A stretch of 37,190 nt of DNA from a virus. Numbering within the stretch: position 1 is the first letter of the stretch; every line of letters begins with the position of its first letter. The notes below the pieces were generated by a model, which saw only the letters and a list, made by a program, of their open reading frames with translations, ran no database searches and was not told the origin of the DNA. The position numbers and the translations under genes are program-made. Below, one piece after another: positions 18,019-26,727 of the stretch. The stretch is from positions 1 through 37,190 of IMG/VR virus record IMGVR_UViG_3300031994_000263. One strand, written 5' to 3'.

Positions 18019-21000
18019 TCATCTTCTTTTCATTGCTCTTTGTGCAGCAAGATTAACTAAATCATTTAATGCTTCTTCAATTTCTCTCTTGCTATTAACA
18101 TTCGGGAACGATGCTTGAATATTAACATTCTGATCAACAGACTCAGTAGATCTATTATTATTAATATTATTAGAGCCACTATTCAACGAACTAAGTCTTG
18201 TAGAAATATTACCGCCAAGGTTATCAACGATACTTCTTAAAATTGCTACGCTGTCAAGCATATTCTTAGTATCATCAGCATTAAGAACAAGCTCTTTTTG
18301 ATGAAGCATAGCAAGACGGCCTTCAGGTCCCCAAGAGCCAGTGTAACCACCAGTGTCAAAACCACTGGTACCAAGACCCCATTTATATTTATCTCTCATT
18401 TTATAGAAATCAAAAATATCTAAATAATAATCTTTAAATTTAGGACCTGGCTCAATAATATGAAAACGACCTAACTCTTTTAATACTTCATCATAAAGTT
18501 TTTGAGCTTTTTTCTTTGTCATTCCTAAACTATTTATAAAGCCATGCTATTCTAATAGTTCTCTATACTGCTCTCCAGGATGATAGAATTCATTCCACGA
18601 ACCACCATAATAAATATTACCTGCGATTCCTTCGGCGGTAGAAACACCATTAGGATTAATTGTTTCTTCCTTTTCTTTACTTGGAGTTTGCTAAGATGAA
18701 GTTGCAGTAGAACTTCCACTTCCTGTTGTCCCACTTCCACTTGATGTAGATGTAGGAATTGAAGCAGGTACCGTAGTAGGCGCAGCAGGTAAAGATTGCG
18801 GCTGTTCCGCAACAGATTGATGTTGGTAAAACCTATTTTCATCTTTTGCAGCTTCTGCCGCTGCAATAGCATTTTGTGCCTATCTATATCTATTAGCTTC
18901 ATCAACCGCTGTTTTAGCAGCGTCATATACAGCTTGATATTTCGCAATTAAAGCATCAAGTTCATCTTTAAGATTTCTAATAGCATTAATCATATCATTC
19001 TGCATTTTGCTAATTAATTCATCATTTTGAGTAATTAATCCACTAAATGCTTCTGCTGCATCATCAATGCCATCCTTAAGTTGACCAAAATCTTCATCCG
19101 CAACACTTTGTAAAGTATCTAATTCACGTTCATAATCCTACGTTGCGGCATCCAAATCATTAAATCCTTGCTGGCAAGCTGGAATAAAACCGCCTTCTCC
19201 AGCAAATGTATTTGCCATTTCTTGAATACCGTTATTCCAAGTAGGAATAAGCTCTCCCATTAATGCTTCTTTTTCACTCTAAATCATAGATTGATAAGCA
19301 TTATAATCACCATCATATAGAGCTGCATAATCTATAAAAGCAGATTCCATTAAATTAGTTCTAATAACTTCATTTTCTGCAACTTTATTATTAATATACT
19401 CTCCATATTGATCACGAAGCAACGCTAATTGTCTAACTCTCTATTCCTCTGATAATGAAGTATCTAAAACAATTTCTTTATATTTAGATTGAAAATCTCT
19501 CCATGCAGAAAGTATATCATCTAAATTCTTTTGATAAGCATTTTTATCAAAATTATAAAGATCATTCTGCGCTTTAGCTAAAGCCTCTTCTGCATTAGCA
19601 ATCTATTCTTGGTTTGCCGCATAAACATAAGAATAATTACCCTGAGAGTCTCTTCTCAACCGCAATGATGTTTTATTCTTCTTTTGATCTTCAAGAGCCA
19701 ATCTAGCCTGTTCAATTTGAAGAATCTTTTCAGCTCTATCAACATCATATTGAGTTAATTTATCTTTATCCCTTAAATTCTTTAGTTGCTCATCTAAAAC
19801 CTTTTGTAAAGCTCTTTGATTCTTTAAGCTCTTATCATCATTAATAATATTAGTATATTTTAACTGAAGCTATTGAATTGCAAATGCAGAATTAATTTCA
19901 TCTAAATACTCATTTGCATTTTTATTCATTAACTCCCATTCCATTTCAATATAATCAGTACCTAACCCACCAGTAATACGCTTGTCTAATGTATCAAAGA
20001 TTTTATTAATAGCATTAGTATATTTATTTTGTAGTAATTCAACAGACTGAGTAATAGCGGAATTAAGATCTTGAACCGTTTGCATATACTCTTGTTTCCA
20101 TTTCTATGCAAGATTACTTTCACCTCTAGCCACCGCCGCATCCCATTCTTGTTTAGATAAATCACGATATTGTTTTAAGAAATCAATTTGCTTTAATTGA
20201 TTTTCTTGTTGCTTACTATAATAGGCGTTCATTGCTTCATACTGTTTATCGCCATAAAGTAACTGTAATAAATCAATATCATGTTCATACAAATCATTTA
20301 CAAAATCATAATCTTCAAGTTGTTTCTGAGCTAAATCACTAACATCATCAACAGTATCAAGAATTGCTTTGTCAACATCTTGAATCAATCCTTCAATACT
20401 CTACATTGAATTCATTAAAGTATCTAAATCACCTTTAAGATGCTACATTGCTTGCGCTTTATCATCACCATATATAGCATCCTTGCCCATCTTATCAATC
20501 TAATCAATGATATTCATTGTTTCATTTAAAGATTGAGTTAAGGCTTGGATAGAATTAGAGCTAGAAACATCAAAATAAGAATTATAGTCAGCAATAGAGC
20601 GGTTAACATCTTTAATTAAAGTTTCAGTGCTAGAATCTCTAAGAACATTATCCGCTTGCTCAACTTCACGTTTAAACTGATTCCAGTCTCTGCGGGCTTC
20701 GCCCATATCAAGACGAATTTCAAGAGCCATTCTAAAACGCTTGATATTAATTTCAATTTGCTTTTGAGAAATTTCAGTAATCTCATCTGTAAGATCTTCC
20801 ATATTATCTCTCAAAGAATCGAAATTCTTAATCGCAGTTTCAATATCCTTCTGATAATCTTGAGCTTTCTTAAGTTGTCTTTCAGCTTCTGTAATTTGAT
20901 CTTTTAATGCATCTTTGGCTGTTTTTTCAGTTATTGCGTTATATTGTTCAACAAGGCCATTATACGCATCAATTAAGCCATTAACAACACCTTGTTGATG

Positions 21001-24000: not shown

Positions 24001-26727
24001 CTGCCTATTTTTTTCTTCTTCTATAATAGCATTATTTATCTTAATAGTTTCTTCTCTAGCTTGCTATTGAGCTTGAGTATAAAGACCAAAAGCAGTAACT
24101 CCTGCTGCTAACAAGCCAAGAACTACAGTAATACCACCAGAAGCCACTCCCAATGCTGCTCCCATTGCAGAAGCAGCTGATGTAACTCCCTTAATCCCCA
24201 TTATCAAACTAGGTAATCCATTGGTTAATAAAGAAAGAGCTTTTTGAGAATCTGAAATCTAAGAATTTTTAAAAATGCTGCCCAAGTGTTGAATTTGATT
24301 AATAGCAGCTCCAATTTGGGATAACCCACCAACTATTTTAGTTAATCCTTGAATATATGCCGTCCTTTGGGCATTGTCTGCTTGACTATTAAAAATATCC
24401 TCTTTAGCCTTTTTAGCTTTTTTAGCCTATTCTGTTAAATTAGTTAAACTATTTGCGGCGCCAGCAAAATTCTATTTTAATCTTTCTGCTAACTCATTTC
24501 CACTTTCTCCAGCATTTTTAGTTAAAGCAATAATTTGACTTGCTATTAAATTTAATTTATTAGCAACTTCTTCCGCAGGAACCTTATCATCTAGTGTCGC
24601 CAGTTCCTATCCAAGCCGTTTAACTTGTTCTTGATGAGCTTCTAATTTACCTTCATCAACTAAAGTTTGTAACTATTCTTGATATTCTTCTAATGCAAAT
24701 TTAGCAATTCTTATATTACCAGCAAATTCATCATTAGACAAGTTTGAATTATTTTGAATTAATTTTAAAGCATTTGCATACTGTTCGACAGACTATGACA
24801 ATGAATTAAATTCCAAATTTTGTTTTTCAAGCCTTTTTATAACTTCTTCTTGGCCGGCAGAATCCATCATTAAATCTTTTAGCCCTTGCCATTTATCAGT
24901 TGCTTTAGTTACGGCCTGAACCATTCCATCAAGAATATCCTATTGAGCAGTTAAAGAAGCTACTTTATTTGTTGCCTAAACAACATCATTTAAAGTAGTT
25001 TGCATTGCAGAAAACTGATCTGGAGACATTACACTAGCTAAAGATAACATTTGCTCTCGACTAGCTAACAAATCTCTTTGAGTTTGATCAAGTCCAGGAA
25101 TACCTTGCCAAGCTTGAATTTGTTCTAAGGTCATTTCAAATTGTCTTGCGTTTTCTTTAGCAATTTCAAAATTAGTTATAGTTGTATTTATTCCTTTAGC
25201 AATTTGTTCGCTAAATACAGAAACGCCAATAGCACCAAGTGATGTTAATATTGCTCCACCGCCGCCAAGAGAATCTACAAACTGTGCAGCAAATGATAAT
25301 ATATCTGCCAATGCATCAATCAATGGCTCTAAAGAATCAGGATTCAAGAAAGAATCATATAGATCTTCTGTTGCAGTTTTTAATTGATTTAAATGTGCAG
25401 CAGTTGACTCTAAATAAATCCCCTGTTGTTGCTCCAAAGTGCCTGCCGCATTTTGAGCAGTAGTTAATGCTTCTGTATATTTATCAAAGTTATCAAATAG
25501 CGCAATTAAGTTAGAATACTGTCTCTGACCAGCCATTATCTGAGCCAAAGACACCTGTTGTTCACGGGTTAAATCTTGCCACTTATATCCAATTTCTTCA
25601 ATGACCTAGCCCATGTCACGAAGATTGCCAGTAGCATCAAGAACATTGAATCCAAGCGCAGCCATCTTACCAGAATATCTACCAAGATCAACTTCATCTT
25701 CTGCAATACCGGCTTTAATATCACTAATACGAGCATATACCGTTCTTAATGCAGTACCAATACTTTCAGGAGCCTGTCTTGTTACAGAAATAATTGTAGA
25801 TAACTGAGCGGCAAGTTGATCTTCTCCGACTCCCATTGCGGCAGCCGCAGCTGCAACCTTACTCATACCCGTTGACAACTATTCAAGGTCGGATGCCGTT
25901 GTAGCAGCAACTGCTGCAAGTCTATCAACATAAAGTTCTGCCTATTCTGCATTAACCTTATAACCATTCCAAACAGAAGTTAACTGTTCAGAAACTTCCG
26001 CTGTTGATTGCCCAGTGACATTTGCCGTCTTTAAAGTAATTGCAGTACGAGCGGCAATCTCCTCATCACTTAAACCCTGTTGAGCATAAATCAATGCTGC
26101 TTTTGTATAGTCGGTTGTCGTTCTACCTAAGGTTTGCGCGGCTTGATTTGCTTGAACTGCAAAATTAGCCATCTACTCAGCAGACTTATTAGTAACAATT
26201 CTAATATCATTTAATGATGTATCTAAATTTTTTACATATCCCCAAGCCTGTTGAATAGATTGAGACATTGTATTAACCGCCGAAGAAGCTAAATTCCATT
26301 TTATAGTATTACTTAAGGTAGTTGCAATATTATCAAGTAAGCTATGAGTTTCTTTTAATTGAACATTAGTGGTTAATACTTGCGAAGTAAGACTTCTAAA
26401 AGCATTTTCGCCAGCCACTCCACCCTTACTAAATGTTGAATAAATCTGTTCAATAGAAGTATTAGACTTCTATAGTGACTTATTAAAAGTCTCAATATTA
26501 ACAGTATTTAATTTTGCATTAAAGGCAGTTTTTAATGCTTCTTGAACATTAGTCGCCTACCTTTTTATATCATTAAGGGCGGTTATGGCAGATGATCTGT
26601 CAGAATCATTAATCTTCATTATATCGCTAATAGATAATTTTTGTAGCTATTGCAATGAAGATTTTAACTTATTCAAGTCAGAATGATTTACATCAAAACC
26701 AACTTTATATTTTATTTCATTCGCCAT
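18019..26727 (-). CDS. Tail tape-measure protein, 2902 aa if it is one gene. It contains dozens of in-frame TAG codons and stops at TGA 18019-18021.
   Basis: Eleven ORF-track pieces between 18019 and 26418 all lie in one frame with ATG 26727, whose RBS aaggaga is 9 nt upstream. Every internal boundary is TAG. The content is coiled-coil rich, with a glycine/membrane-like segment (LAAGVTAFGLY...) and a Ser/Thr-rich linker, as in tape-measure proteins. The out-of-frame ORF-track piece 18552..18947 is rejected. Confidence 0.6.

Follow-up and report, generated by a model that had tools for sequence, protein, structure and literature searches.

A single amber-riddled tape-measure gene in a rumen/gut phage lineage in which TAG appears to encode glutamate

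A 37,190-nucleotide stretch of viral DNA (IMG/VR record IMGVR_UViG_3300031994_000263; hereafter, the window) carries on its minus strand a very long frame that is interrupted by amber (TAG) codons only, which raises the questions of whether it constitutes one gene or several and of which amino acid TAG specifies. We found that the region is one gene for a tail tape-measure protein (TMP) of 2,902 residues, and that TAG appears to encode glutamate, not glutamine, in the rumen/gut phage lineage to which the window belongs. Taken as a whole, we consider it likely that this single protein is produced with TAG read as Glu in the late genes, most probably through a phage transfer RNA (tRNA) with anticodon CUA.

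The frame runs from an ATG at 26727 to a TGA at 18019-18021 and measures 8,709 nt, or 2,903 codons (2,902 plus the stop), within which we counted 56 in-frame TAG codons and no TAA or TGA ahead of the terminal TGA. At the base composition of the region, the chance of meeting TAA or TGA is 0.063 per codon, such that a run of 2,902 codons lacking both has a probability of ~1e-82. As TAG occurs 56 times where base composition predicts 63, it behaves as an ordinary sense codon. The recoding extends over the window: in-frame TAG is present in 17 of 28 genes, which are open only if it is read through, and these 28 genes terminate in TAA (24) or TGA (4) but never in TAG. The initial annotation had described a single frame between ATG 26727 and TGA 18019 with TAG as its only internal stop, which these counts confirm, and the eleven in-phase fragments that it listed agree with the open reading frames (ORFs) obtained under the standard code.

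Profile searches identified the encoded protein as a TMP. The tape-measure core domain PF10145 (PhageMin_Tail) scored 94.8 bits (curated cutoff, 33.2; E=8e-27), with profile positions 1-200 of 201 aligned, so that the check by hidden Markov models that the initial annotation had proposed was positive. In addition, 14 PHROG TMP families were matched (best E=1.6e-69), two of them with profiles spanning 2,625 and 2,675 positions, and one, phrog_24, matching the last 114 residues only. TAG codons 262, 283, and 374 lie inside the core domain, at positions where homologues have Asp or Glu and never Gln. The conserved C-terminal block is 37-51% identical to the TMPs of relatives, and neither internal repeats nor cysteines were found in the protein. 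Its layout is the one usual for TMPs, the N-terminal core being followed by Gly-rich hydrophobic segments, a very long helical spacer that would set the tail length, and the C-terminal block.

The initial annotation had left room for several tail proteins with unseen junctions. Scanning the frame for internal starts, we found no ATG led by a Shine-Dalgarno (SD) motif and only 3 weak TTG/GTG candidates, no more than expected by chance, whereas 23 of the window's 26 real genes are preceded by such a motif. Upon aligning the window TMP to that of L006 (contigs and loci are denoted by L numbers), we obtained one high-scoring segment pair covering residues 1-2608, and alignments to the TAG-free TMP of L019 and to that of Enterococcus phage VRE9_2 returned N-terminal, central, and C-terminal blocks in order. 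Hence, the absence of TAA and TGA and of SD-led internal ATG codons, combined with collinear single-ORF relatives, refutes the multi-gene alternative and supports the single giant TMP of about 2900 residues, read through dozens of amber codons, that had been proposed.

Searching GenBank phages with tblastn, we matched 249 records, nearly all of them phages of Bacillota. Enterococcus phages VRE9_1-4, EF1, EF5, and H1 have a standard-code TMP annotated as a single coding sequence (2,673 aa in VRE9_2) that matches both ends of the query, and the human-faecal contig MT835936 (L002) contains an uninterrupted standard-code TMP ORF of 2,939 aa. IMG/VR yielded 26 closer relatives, with 61-85% identity in the core and contigs of up to 130-140 kb. 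Every full-length relative is one frame of 2,570-3,068 codons with no internal TAA or TGA, and the number of TAG codons per TMP ranges from 0 (L019, 2,802 aa) through 3-5 (L023 and L006) to 75 (L011), with the TAG-riddled pattern kept across dozens of independent assemblies. That L019/L087 (IMGVR_UViG_3300035498_000844) has a TAG-free TMP while its close relatives L006 and L023 have only 3-5 TAG codons means that close relatives differ in code use, and suggests that recoding was recently gained or lost within one phage family. Separately, in two IMG/VR contigs (L026 and L027) the TMP frame is closed by a TAA after 335 codons; these may be truncated variants or assembly chimeras. No match was obtained when 24 kb of window sequence was compared by megablast with 50,697 phage records.

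We then asked what TAG stands for, using an alignment of 22 TMP sequences. Where at least 90% of the other sequences agreed, 85% of the TAG cells stood opposite Glu and 0% opposite Gln, whereas genuine Gln codons in such columns faced Gln in 94% and Glu in 1%, and Glu codons faced Glu in 91%. Over the range of conserved columns, these values were 68-85% Glu and 0-10% Gln for TAG, compared to 88-94% Gln and 1-3% Glu for true Gln codons. Counting each independent column at the ≥90% consensus once gave Glu in 17/22 and Gln in 0/22. A column-weighted likelihood classifier, whose substitution profiles were learned from the same alignment, assigned all six control codons correctly (GAG, CAG, AAG, GAC, AAC, and TCA) and ranked Glu (-1269) above Lys (-1377), Gln (-1384), and Asp for TAG, the same order as for GAG, with an advantage of Glu over Gln of +115. 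Table 15, the code under which the initial annotation had proposed to read the region, thus supplies the wrong amino acid here, as the TAG positions align with Glu and not with Gln.

A second protein family gave the same answer independently. The DUF5048-like late protein of 635 aa, represented by the window gene and 12 other contigs, is globular and not a coiled coil; its conserved TAG columns held Glu in 28/34 cases and Gln in 1/34, with a log likelihood of -123 for Glu versus -221 for Gln. Upon bootstrapping over columns, Glu beat Gln in 5,000 of 5,000 replicates for the TMP family, for the 635-aa family, and for the window-TAG columns alone. For the 635-aa family as a whole, Glu led Gln by +96 in log likelihood, and the window-TAG columns favored Glu over Gln by +13.9 (54 TMP columns) and +20.8 (14 columns of the 635-aa gene). 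Each TAG-rich member pointed in the same direction when taken singly, with Glu:Gln counts of 10:1 (window), 17:2 (L011), 15:0 (L069), and 9:0 (L075). Amino acid composition agreed as well: the TAG-free TMP of L019 contains 9.06% Glu and 6.4% Gln, compared to 7.1% Glu and 6.3% Gln in that of the window, where Glu plus TAG amounts to 9.03%. Window-wide, Glu makes up 5.42% of residues in TAG-containing genes (7.09% with TAG included) versus 7.01% in TAG-free genes, while Gln is at 4.35% and 4.29%, respectively.

A RuvC-like resolvase encoded in the window (phrog_827, E=2.6e-16; its homologues carry PF02075) allowed the question to be asked at a putative catalytic residue. We compared the family with the catalytic acidic residues of E. 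coli RuvC, namely D7, E66, D138, and D141. Aligning the family profile to E. coli RuvC (1HJR) placed D7 on D7 and the first Glu of the IIM-E-E-VRP motif on catalytic E66, in a weak alignment (E=0.37), and the DD.AD motif of the family is invariant; a phmmer search of the protein against the PDB returned nothing useful. At the two Glu positions of the motif, the window has TAG-GAA, L076 and L077 have TAG-TAG, and L078, L071, and L014 have GAA-GAA; at the DNA level TAG interchanges with GAA at ~10 columns of the gene. At many conserved columns, the 516 database homologues of the protein contain E and Q only, and these database Qs are in fact TAGs: the underlying genes do not yield the database protein under table 11. 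Inferring the identity of TAG from such homologues was accordingly dropped in favor of DNA-backed copies. The ENA, Logan, and NCBI-derived proteins of the lineage (P0001-P0120, loci L076-L080) were translated under code 15, which renders TAG as Q, and at the position aligned to the catalytic Glu of RuvC they form an artificial column of 91 E and 29 'Q'.

Candidate suppressors were found in relatives of the window. Walking left with the 635-aa protein and a 120-aa protein led to a tRNA cluster that lies, in the relatives, 2-10 kb upstream of the gene block with which the window begins at its left edge, and in four relatives (L075, L084, L085, and L094) one of the tRNAs has the anticodon CUA. 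Of the long contigs, L094 is the closest: a flanking protein shares 83% identity with that of the window lineage. The four tRNA(CUA) are mutually homologous (68-86% identity), and their consensus cloverleaf has 20 pairs, none of them broken and 11 with compensatory changes. They carry G.U or C-G at positions 1-72 and the discriminator A73, unlike the tRNA-Gln of these phages, which has U1-A72 and a GCCAAG D-arm. Three of them share the D-arm, the variable loop, and A73 with the tRNA-Glu(CUC) of phage phAss-1, a single comparator, from which they are one anticodon-loop base apart. No tRNA was detected in 27 TMP-centred loci, in the extensions of the window (including L095), or in 25 of 26 ligase-centred loci, the exception being the distant L056; the contig with the TAG-free TMP (L019/L087) has no tRNAs at the syntenic site.

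Two further observations concern the surroundings of these suppressors. At 2395-2469 of L075, beside the CUA suppressor, lies a tRNA-like gene with the ochre-type anticodon UUA and a weak acceptor stem, despite which TAA is the main stop in L075; the gene may represent a tRNA that has decayed or become specialised. A complete factor of the sigma-70 family (regions 1.2, 2, 3, and 4), possibly a regulator of late transcription, is encoded at 1129-2028 of L094, ~0.8 kb upstream of the CUA tRNA of this contig (2791-2865).

We hypothesize that TAG is decoded as Glu most probably by this phage tRNA(CUA), from a cluster that would lie just outside the window. Many Bacillota lack glutaminyl-tRNA synthetase (GlnRS) and produce Gln-tRNA via a non-discriminating glutamyl-tRNA synthetase (GluRS) and the amidotransferase GatCAB, which recognises the U1-A72 pair of tRNA-Gln. 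Host GluRS, perhaps of the non-discriminating type of GlnRS-lacking bacteria, could thus charge the CUA tRNA with Glu, and the resulting Glu-tRNA(CUA) would escape amidation because it lacks the U1-A72 pair of tRNA-Gln.

A number of results weigh against the reading of the gene and of its code given here. At short evolutionary distances a secondary Gln signal emerges: in TMP pairs 60-80% identical TAG faces Glu in 23% and Gln in 14%, and in pairs more than 80% identical it faces CAA or CAG six times and GAA four times. Two RuvC columns pair TAG with a genuine CAA, the TAG-poor L006 scored Gln in 2/2 cases, and the Gln content drops as the TAG content rises (slope -0.31, p=0.007). Comparing non-TMP genes by tblastn gave a noisy picture (Glu 19%, Ala 18%, Lys 12%, Asp 12%, Gln 10%), the match to E. 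coli RuvC is weak as stated, and the neighbouring tail genes, encoding proteins of 1,451 and 596 aa, matched no Pfam or PHROG family. As for the suppressor, the window itself contains no tRNA gene, and the tRNA(CUA) was seen only in relatives, with flanking proteins at 57-83% identity. Its nearest neighbours by sequence are tRNA-Trp (64-69%), and its resemblance to tRNA-Glu(CUC) comes from one comparator. An attempt to derive the isotype from D-arm and variable-loop features failed, as these features are non-specific in this set of tRNAs, so that the isotype is not assignable from sequence. Moreover, the authors of the phAss-1 study assign TAG to Gln (PMC10607447).

These points bear on three other explanations. 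The TMP could be a single giant protein with TAG read as Gln (code 15), the Glu signal then arising from a Glu-rich coiled coil and E/Q exchange. This would fit the literature consensus for crAss-like, Lak, and phAss-1 phages, the minority of TAG positions that face genuine CAA or CAG, the two Gln calls in L006, and the somewhat lower Gln content at higher TAG; we nevertheless regard it as improbable, since true Gln codons behave differently from TAG in the same alignment, since the classifier that recovers CAG as Gln calls TAG as Glu, and since a family that is globular and not a coiled coil gave 28 Glu versus 1 Gln. None of the 5,000 bootstrap replicates favored Gln, a TAG occupies the position aligned to the catalytic Glu of RuvC, a normal composition is restored by adding TAG to Glu and not to Gln, and the suppressors are unlike the phages' own tRNA-Gln. 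Decoding could also be mixed (Glu plus Gln) or lineage-dependent within the family, for which the minority Gln signal at short distances leaves room. The TAG-poor L006 and L023 differ from other members, the suppressors have bodies of two or more types (L094 versus L075/L084/L085), and L075 has its additional tRNA(UUA). Yet each TAG-rich member alone shows far more Glu than Gln, the four suppressors are mutually homologous, and a minority Gln signal is precisely what TAG as Glu predicts if CAG-to-TAG transitions, amounting to conservative Q-to-E replacements, are mutationally easy and common; we therefore deem mixed decoding quite improbable. We find it hardly credible that the region represents several tail genes side by side, or a pseudogene in decay, with TAG as a true stop accompanied by restarts or occasional readthrough. 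The standard code does split the frame into many fragments, but chance would not keep 2,902 codons free of TAA and TGA, SD-led internal ATG codons are lacking, the homologues with 0-5 TAG codons are uninterrupted and collinear end to end, and the same pattern recurs in dozens of independent assemblies. Overall, one TMP with TAG read as Glu remains our preferred reading.

The distribution of TAG suggests a role for this codon. It occurs in structural and lysis genes and in some other late genes only; the replication/early block (27470-33151, 35510-36022, and the gyrase and ligase genes downstream) is free of it. The highest densities occur in a holin-like membrane protein at 33220-33621 on the plus strand (6 in 133 codons, or 4.5 per 100) and in the RuvC-like resolvase at 10885-11373 on the minus strand (7 in 162, or 4.3 per 100), followed by the 635-aa protein (2.2), the 1,451-aa protein (2.0), and the TMP (1.9). 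Confinement to late genes implies that these proteins would be made only once the suppressor system is active, and we infer a late-gene gating role of TAG. This fits a published model whereby recoding holds back the late and lysis proteins as long as the suppressor system is not yet active (10.1101/2021.08.26.457843). With its 56 TAG codons, the TMP would be the most demanding client of such a system: the full-length yield scales as p^56 with the per-codon efficiency p, giving 6% at 95% and 57% at 99%, which implies either that decoding is near-complete or that the few TMP copies per virion tolerate a low yield.

The length of the TMP allows a prediction of the tail. Bacillus siphovirus Tsamsa has a TMP of 3,123 aa and a measured tail of 440 nm (PMC3903500), i.e., 0.141 nm per residue, and at 0.141-0.15 nm per residue the 2,902 residues found here would correspond to a tail of 409-435 nm. 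The TMP is long, as the initial annotation had stated, but calling it exceptional was an overstatement, as Tsamsa and the ~136-kb human-gut phages of the phAss-1 group, whose TMPs of 3,149-3,209 aa also show TAG readthrough (PMC10607447), exceed it. The phage is probably large, about 130-140 kb, and siphovirus-like, with a genome that extends beyond the window into genes for RNase H, GIY-YIG, gyrase-like subunits, and NAD-ligase (L029, L030, and L037). It comes from rumen or gut; the sample labels SHIW14, STEW19, and AUXO01 suggest sheep and cattle rumen. A GH25-CHAP-SH3 lysin, together with the Bacillota-phage relatives of the TMP, suggests that the host is probably Gram-positive.

Coordinates of the TMP gene, its parts, and the neighbouring features are collected in the table.

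Table. Features of the TMP gene and its surroundings, in window coordinates.
Feature	Coordinates	Strand	Remarks
TMP gene	18019..26727	-	2,902 codons + TGA; 56 TAG; ~324 kDa
SD motif AAGGAGA 5' of the TMP ATG	26737..26743	-	strong motif
TMP core domain PF10145 (PhageMin_Tail), residues 194-399	25531..26148	-	profile match
Gly-rich hydrophobic segment, residues 487-505	25213..25269	-	
Long Gly/Ala-rich hydrophobic (membrane-like) segment, residues 851-886	24070..24177	-	
Conserved TMP C-terminal block, residues 2787-2900, GGYTG.W...LH.KE.VLN	18028..18369	-	matches C-termini of L002, L019, and VRE9_2, and phrog_24
Terminator-like hairpin, 11-13 bp stem + T-run	17992..18020	-	overlaps the TMP stop
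Promoter-like site TTGACA-17-TAGAAT with TG	17937..17965	-	11/12; ahead of the next gene
1,451-aa protein, directly downstream of TMP	13553..17908	-	29 TAG; no family match; synteny in L076 and L078
61-aa acidic ORF	26751..26936	-	1 TAG; own SD; no family match
93-aa ORF, opening the minus-strand unit	26957..27238	-	~200 homologues, 70-99% identity
Divergent AT-rich intergenic region	27239..27469	.	separates the TMP unit from the TAG-free block on the plus strand
635-aa DUF5048-like late protein	1807..3714	+	14 TAG; independent TAG-identity family
RuvC-like resolvase	10885..11373	-	7 TAG; codon 62 TAG (11188-11190) aligned to RuvC catalytic Glu66

In the minus-strand unit, the TMP gene is preceded by the 93-aa and the 61-aa ORF, in that order. 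The initial annotation had noted two tiny ORFs where tail-assembly chaperones would be expected; the ORFs exist, but nothing else about them supports that role. They are separate genes, 20 nt apart and each SD-led, with no overlap, slippery site, or frameshift signal between them, and neither matched a Pfam or PHROG family. The 93-aa protein was modeled as all-beta, with a predicted local distance difference test (pLDDT) score of 87, and the best PDB matches in a fold search with this model were cupin or jelly-roll structures that are not significant (E=0.04, template-modelling score <0.5), and nothing chaperone-like was matched. Tail assembly chaperones of the lambda gpG/gpGT type are a pair of overlapping ORFs, joined by a programmed -1 frameshift directly ahead of the TMP gene, and the two ORFs here show no recognisable resemblance to them. 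No major tail protein was found upstream of the TMP, the transcription unit beginning two small genes earlier. At its other end, the strong terminator-like hairpin at the TMP stop is followed by a near-consensus promoter-like site, so that the TMP unit seems to be transcribed separately from the tail genes beyond it. There, large proteins (1,451 aa and 596 aa) follow, with synteny kept in L076 and L078; the 1,451-aa protein is presumed to be a distal-tail or fibre protein, and a search for related loci with it as query matched no pattern.

Two other regions of the window merit mention. Divergent from the TMP unit, a TAG-free protein of 823 aa (27470-29941, plus strand) matches the 'shoulder' domain of major vault protein (PF11978, E=9.6e-19, residues 512-620); it also matches SPFH/Band-7 weakly and has a long coiled coil at its C-terminus. 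Such a vault-like protein is unusual for a phage. At 4700-6006 on the plus strand, an island of elevated GC content (~0.40 versus 0.32) holds two genes without TAG, one encoding a protein of 278 aa that is rich in Asn, Gly, and Cys and contains a hydrophobic segment as well as CxC/CCC motifs (phrog_16490), and the other a 151-aa protein (phrog_20016).

In itself, this giant TMP with its many amber codons is a large but otherwise ordinary addition to a known class; its value lies mainly in the corrected annotation and in the predicted tail of ~0.4 micrometres. The meaning of TAG reaches further. We lean, with some reserve, to the view that a widespread rumen/gut phage lineage of ~130-140 kb uses TAG for Glu, a code undescribed for a virus or bacterium, through a dedicated tRNA(CUA) that is possibly charged by the (non-discriminating) GluRS of the host and left unamidated. 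In the literature searched, which covered the journals only in part, no assignment of TAG to Glu was found for a phage or bacterium, stop-to-Glu reassignments were limited to ciliates, and TAG in phages was always Gln; the NCBI taxonomy lists only a 'code 15 clade'. If true, a natural code would be added to those recognised in phages, namely TAG to Gln, TGA to Trp, and TGA to Gly, and public code-15 translations would mis-assign ~2% of late-protein residues, catalytic glutamates included. As prodigal-gv, Pharokka-gv, and the ENA and Logan proteins print TAG as Q, thousands of proteins of the lineage would be corrupted, among them the RuvC resolvase at its catalytic Glu. The amino acid of a recoded stop would then depend on the Glu/Gln charging pathway of the host, which poses a testable question: do hosts with GlnRS yield Gln, and hosts with GluRS/GatCAB yield Glu? 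A natural and apparently efficient Glu-type tRNA that decodes UAG would also be of interest for genetic-code engineering.

The closest comparison is with the phAss-1 group ('Phassvirus'; OQ749652), uncultured gut phages of ~136 kb that have TAG in the TMP, TerL, portal, and other late genes (PMC10607447), a giant TMP of 3,149-3,209 aa, and a large tRNA cluster including a tRNA(CUA). The group is distant from the window, however, with no DNA match, and the N-terminus of the phAss-1 TMP is 30% identical to that of the window in a match confined to residues 61-489. The authors read TAG as Gln, whereas we observe alignment with Glu, and the one of the three reported Sup-CTA tRNAs that we examined has a different body, with a GCTC/GAGC D-arm. 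The code-15 phages (crAss-like, Lak, and Garnet/Amethyst/Jade/Sapphire/Agate) have phage suppressor tRNAs, whose counterparts here were found in relatives of the window, close relatives with the standard code, and a proposed role of recoding in late timing (10.1101/2021.08.26.457843; PMC9523058), and they share with the window in-frame TAG in intact late genes and the avoidance of TAG as a terminator. They differ in that TAG is Gln, as validated by proteomics for crAss-like phages (PMC9523058), while in the window lineage it is Glu by alignment, and the probable Gram-positive host sets the window phage apart from them. Tsamsa and Enterococcus phages VRE9_1-4, EF1, EF5, and H1 resemble the window phage in having homologous TMP ends with a collinear middle, genomes of 134-169 kb, and a TMP length that sets a very long tail, but they use the standard code and are cultured, and the tail of Tsamsa has been measured; a search of the literature for VRE9 yielded nothing relevant on morphology. 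Finally, ciliate nuclear codes (peritrich, NCBI table 30, with UAA and UAG as Glu) share with the phage lineage the reading of UAG as Glu, although there the code is a eukaryotic nuclear one, in which the whole genome is recoded and the release factor has changed.

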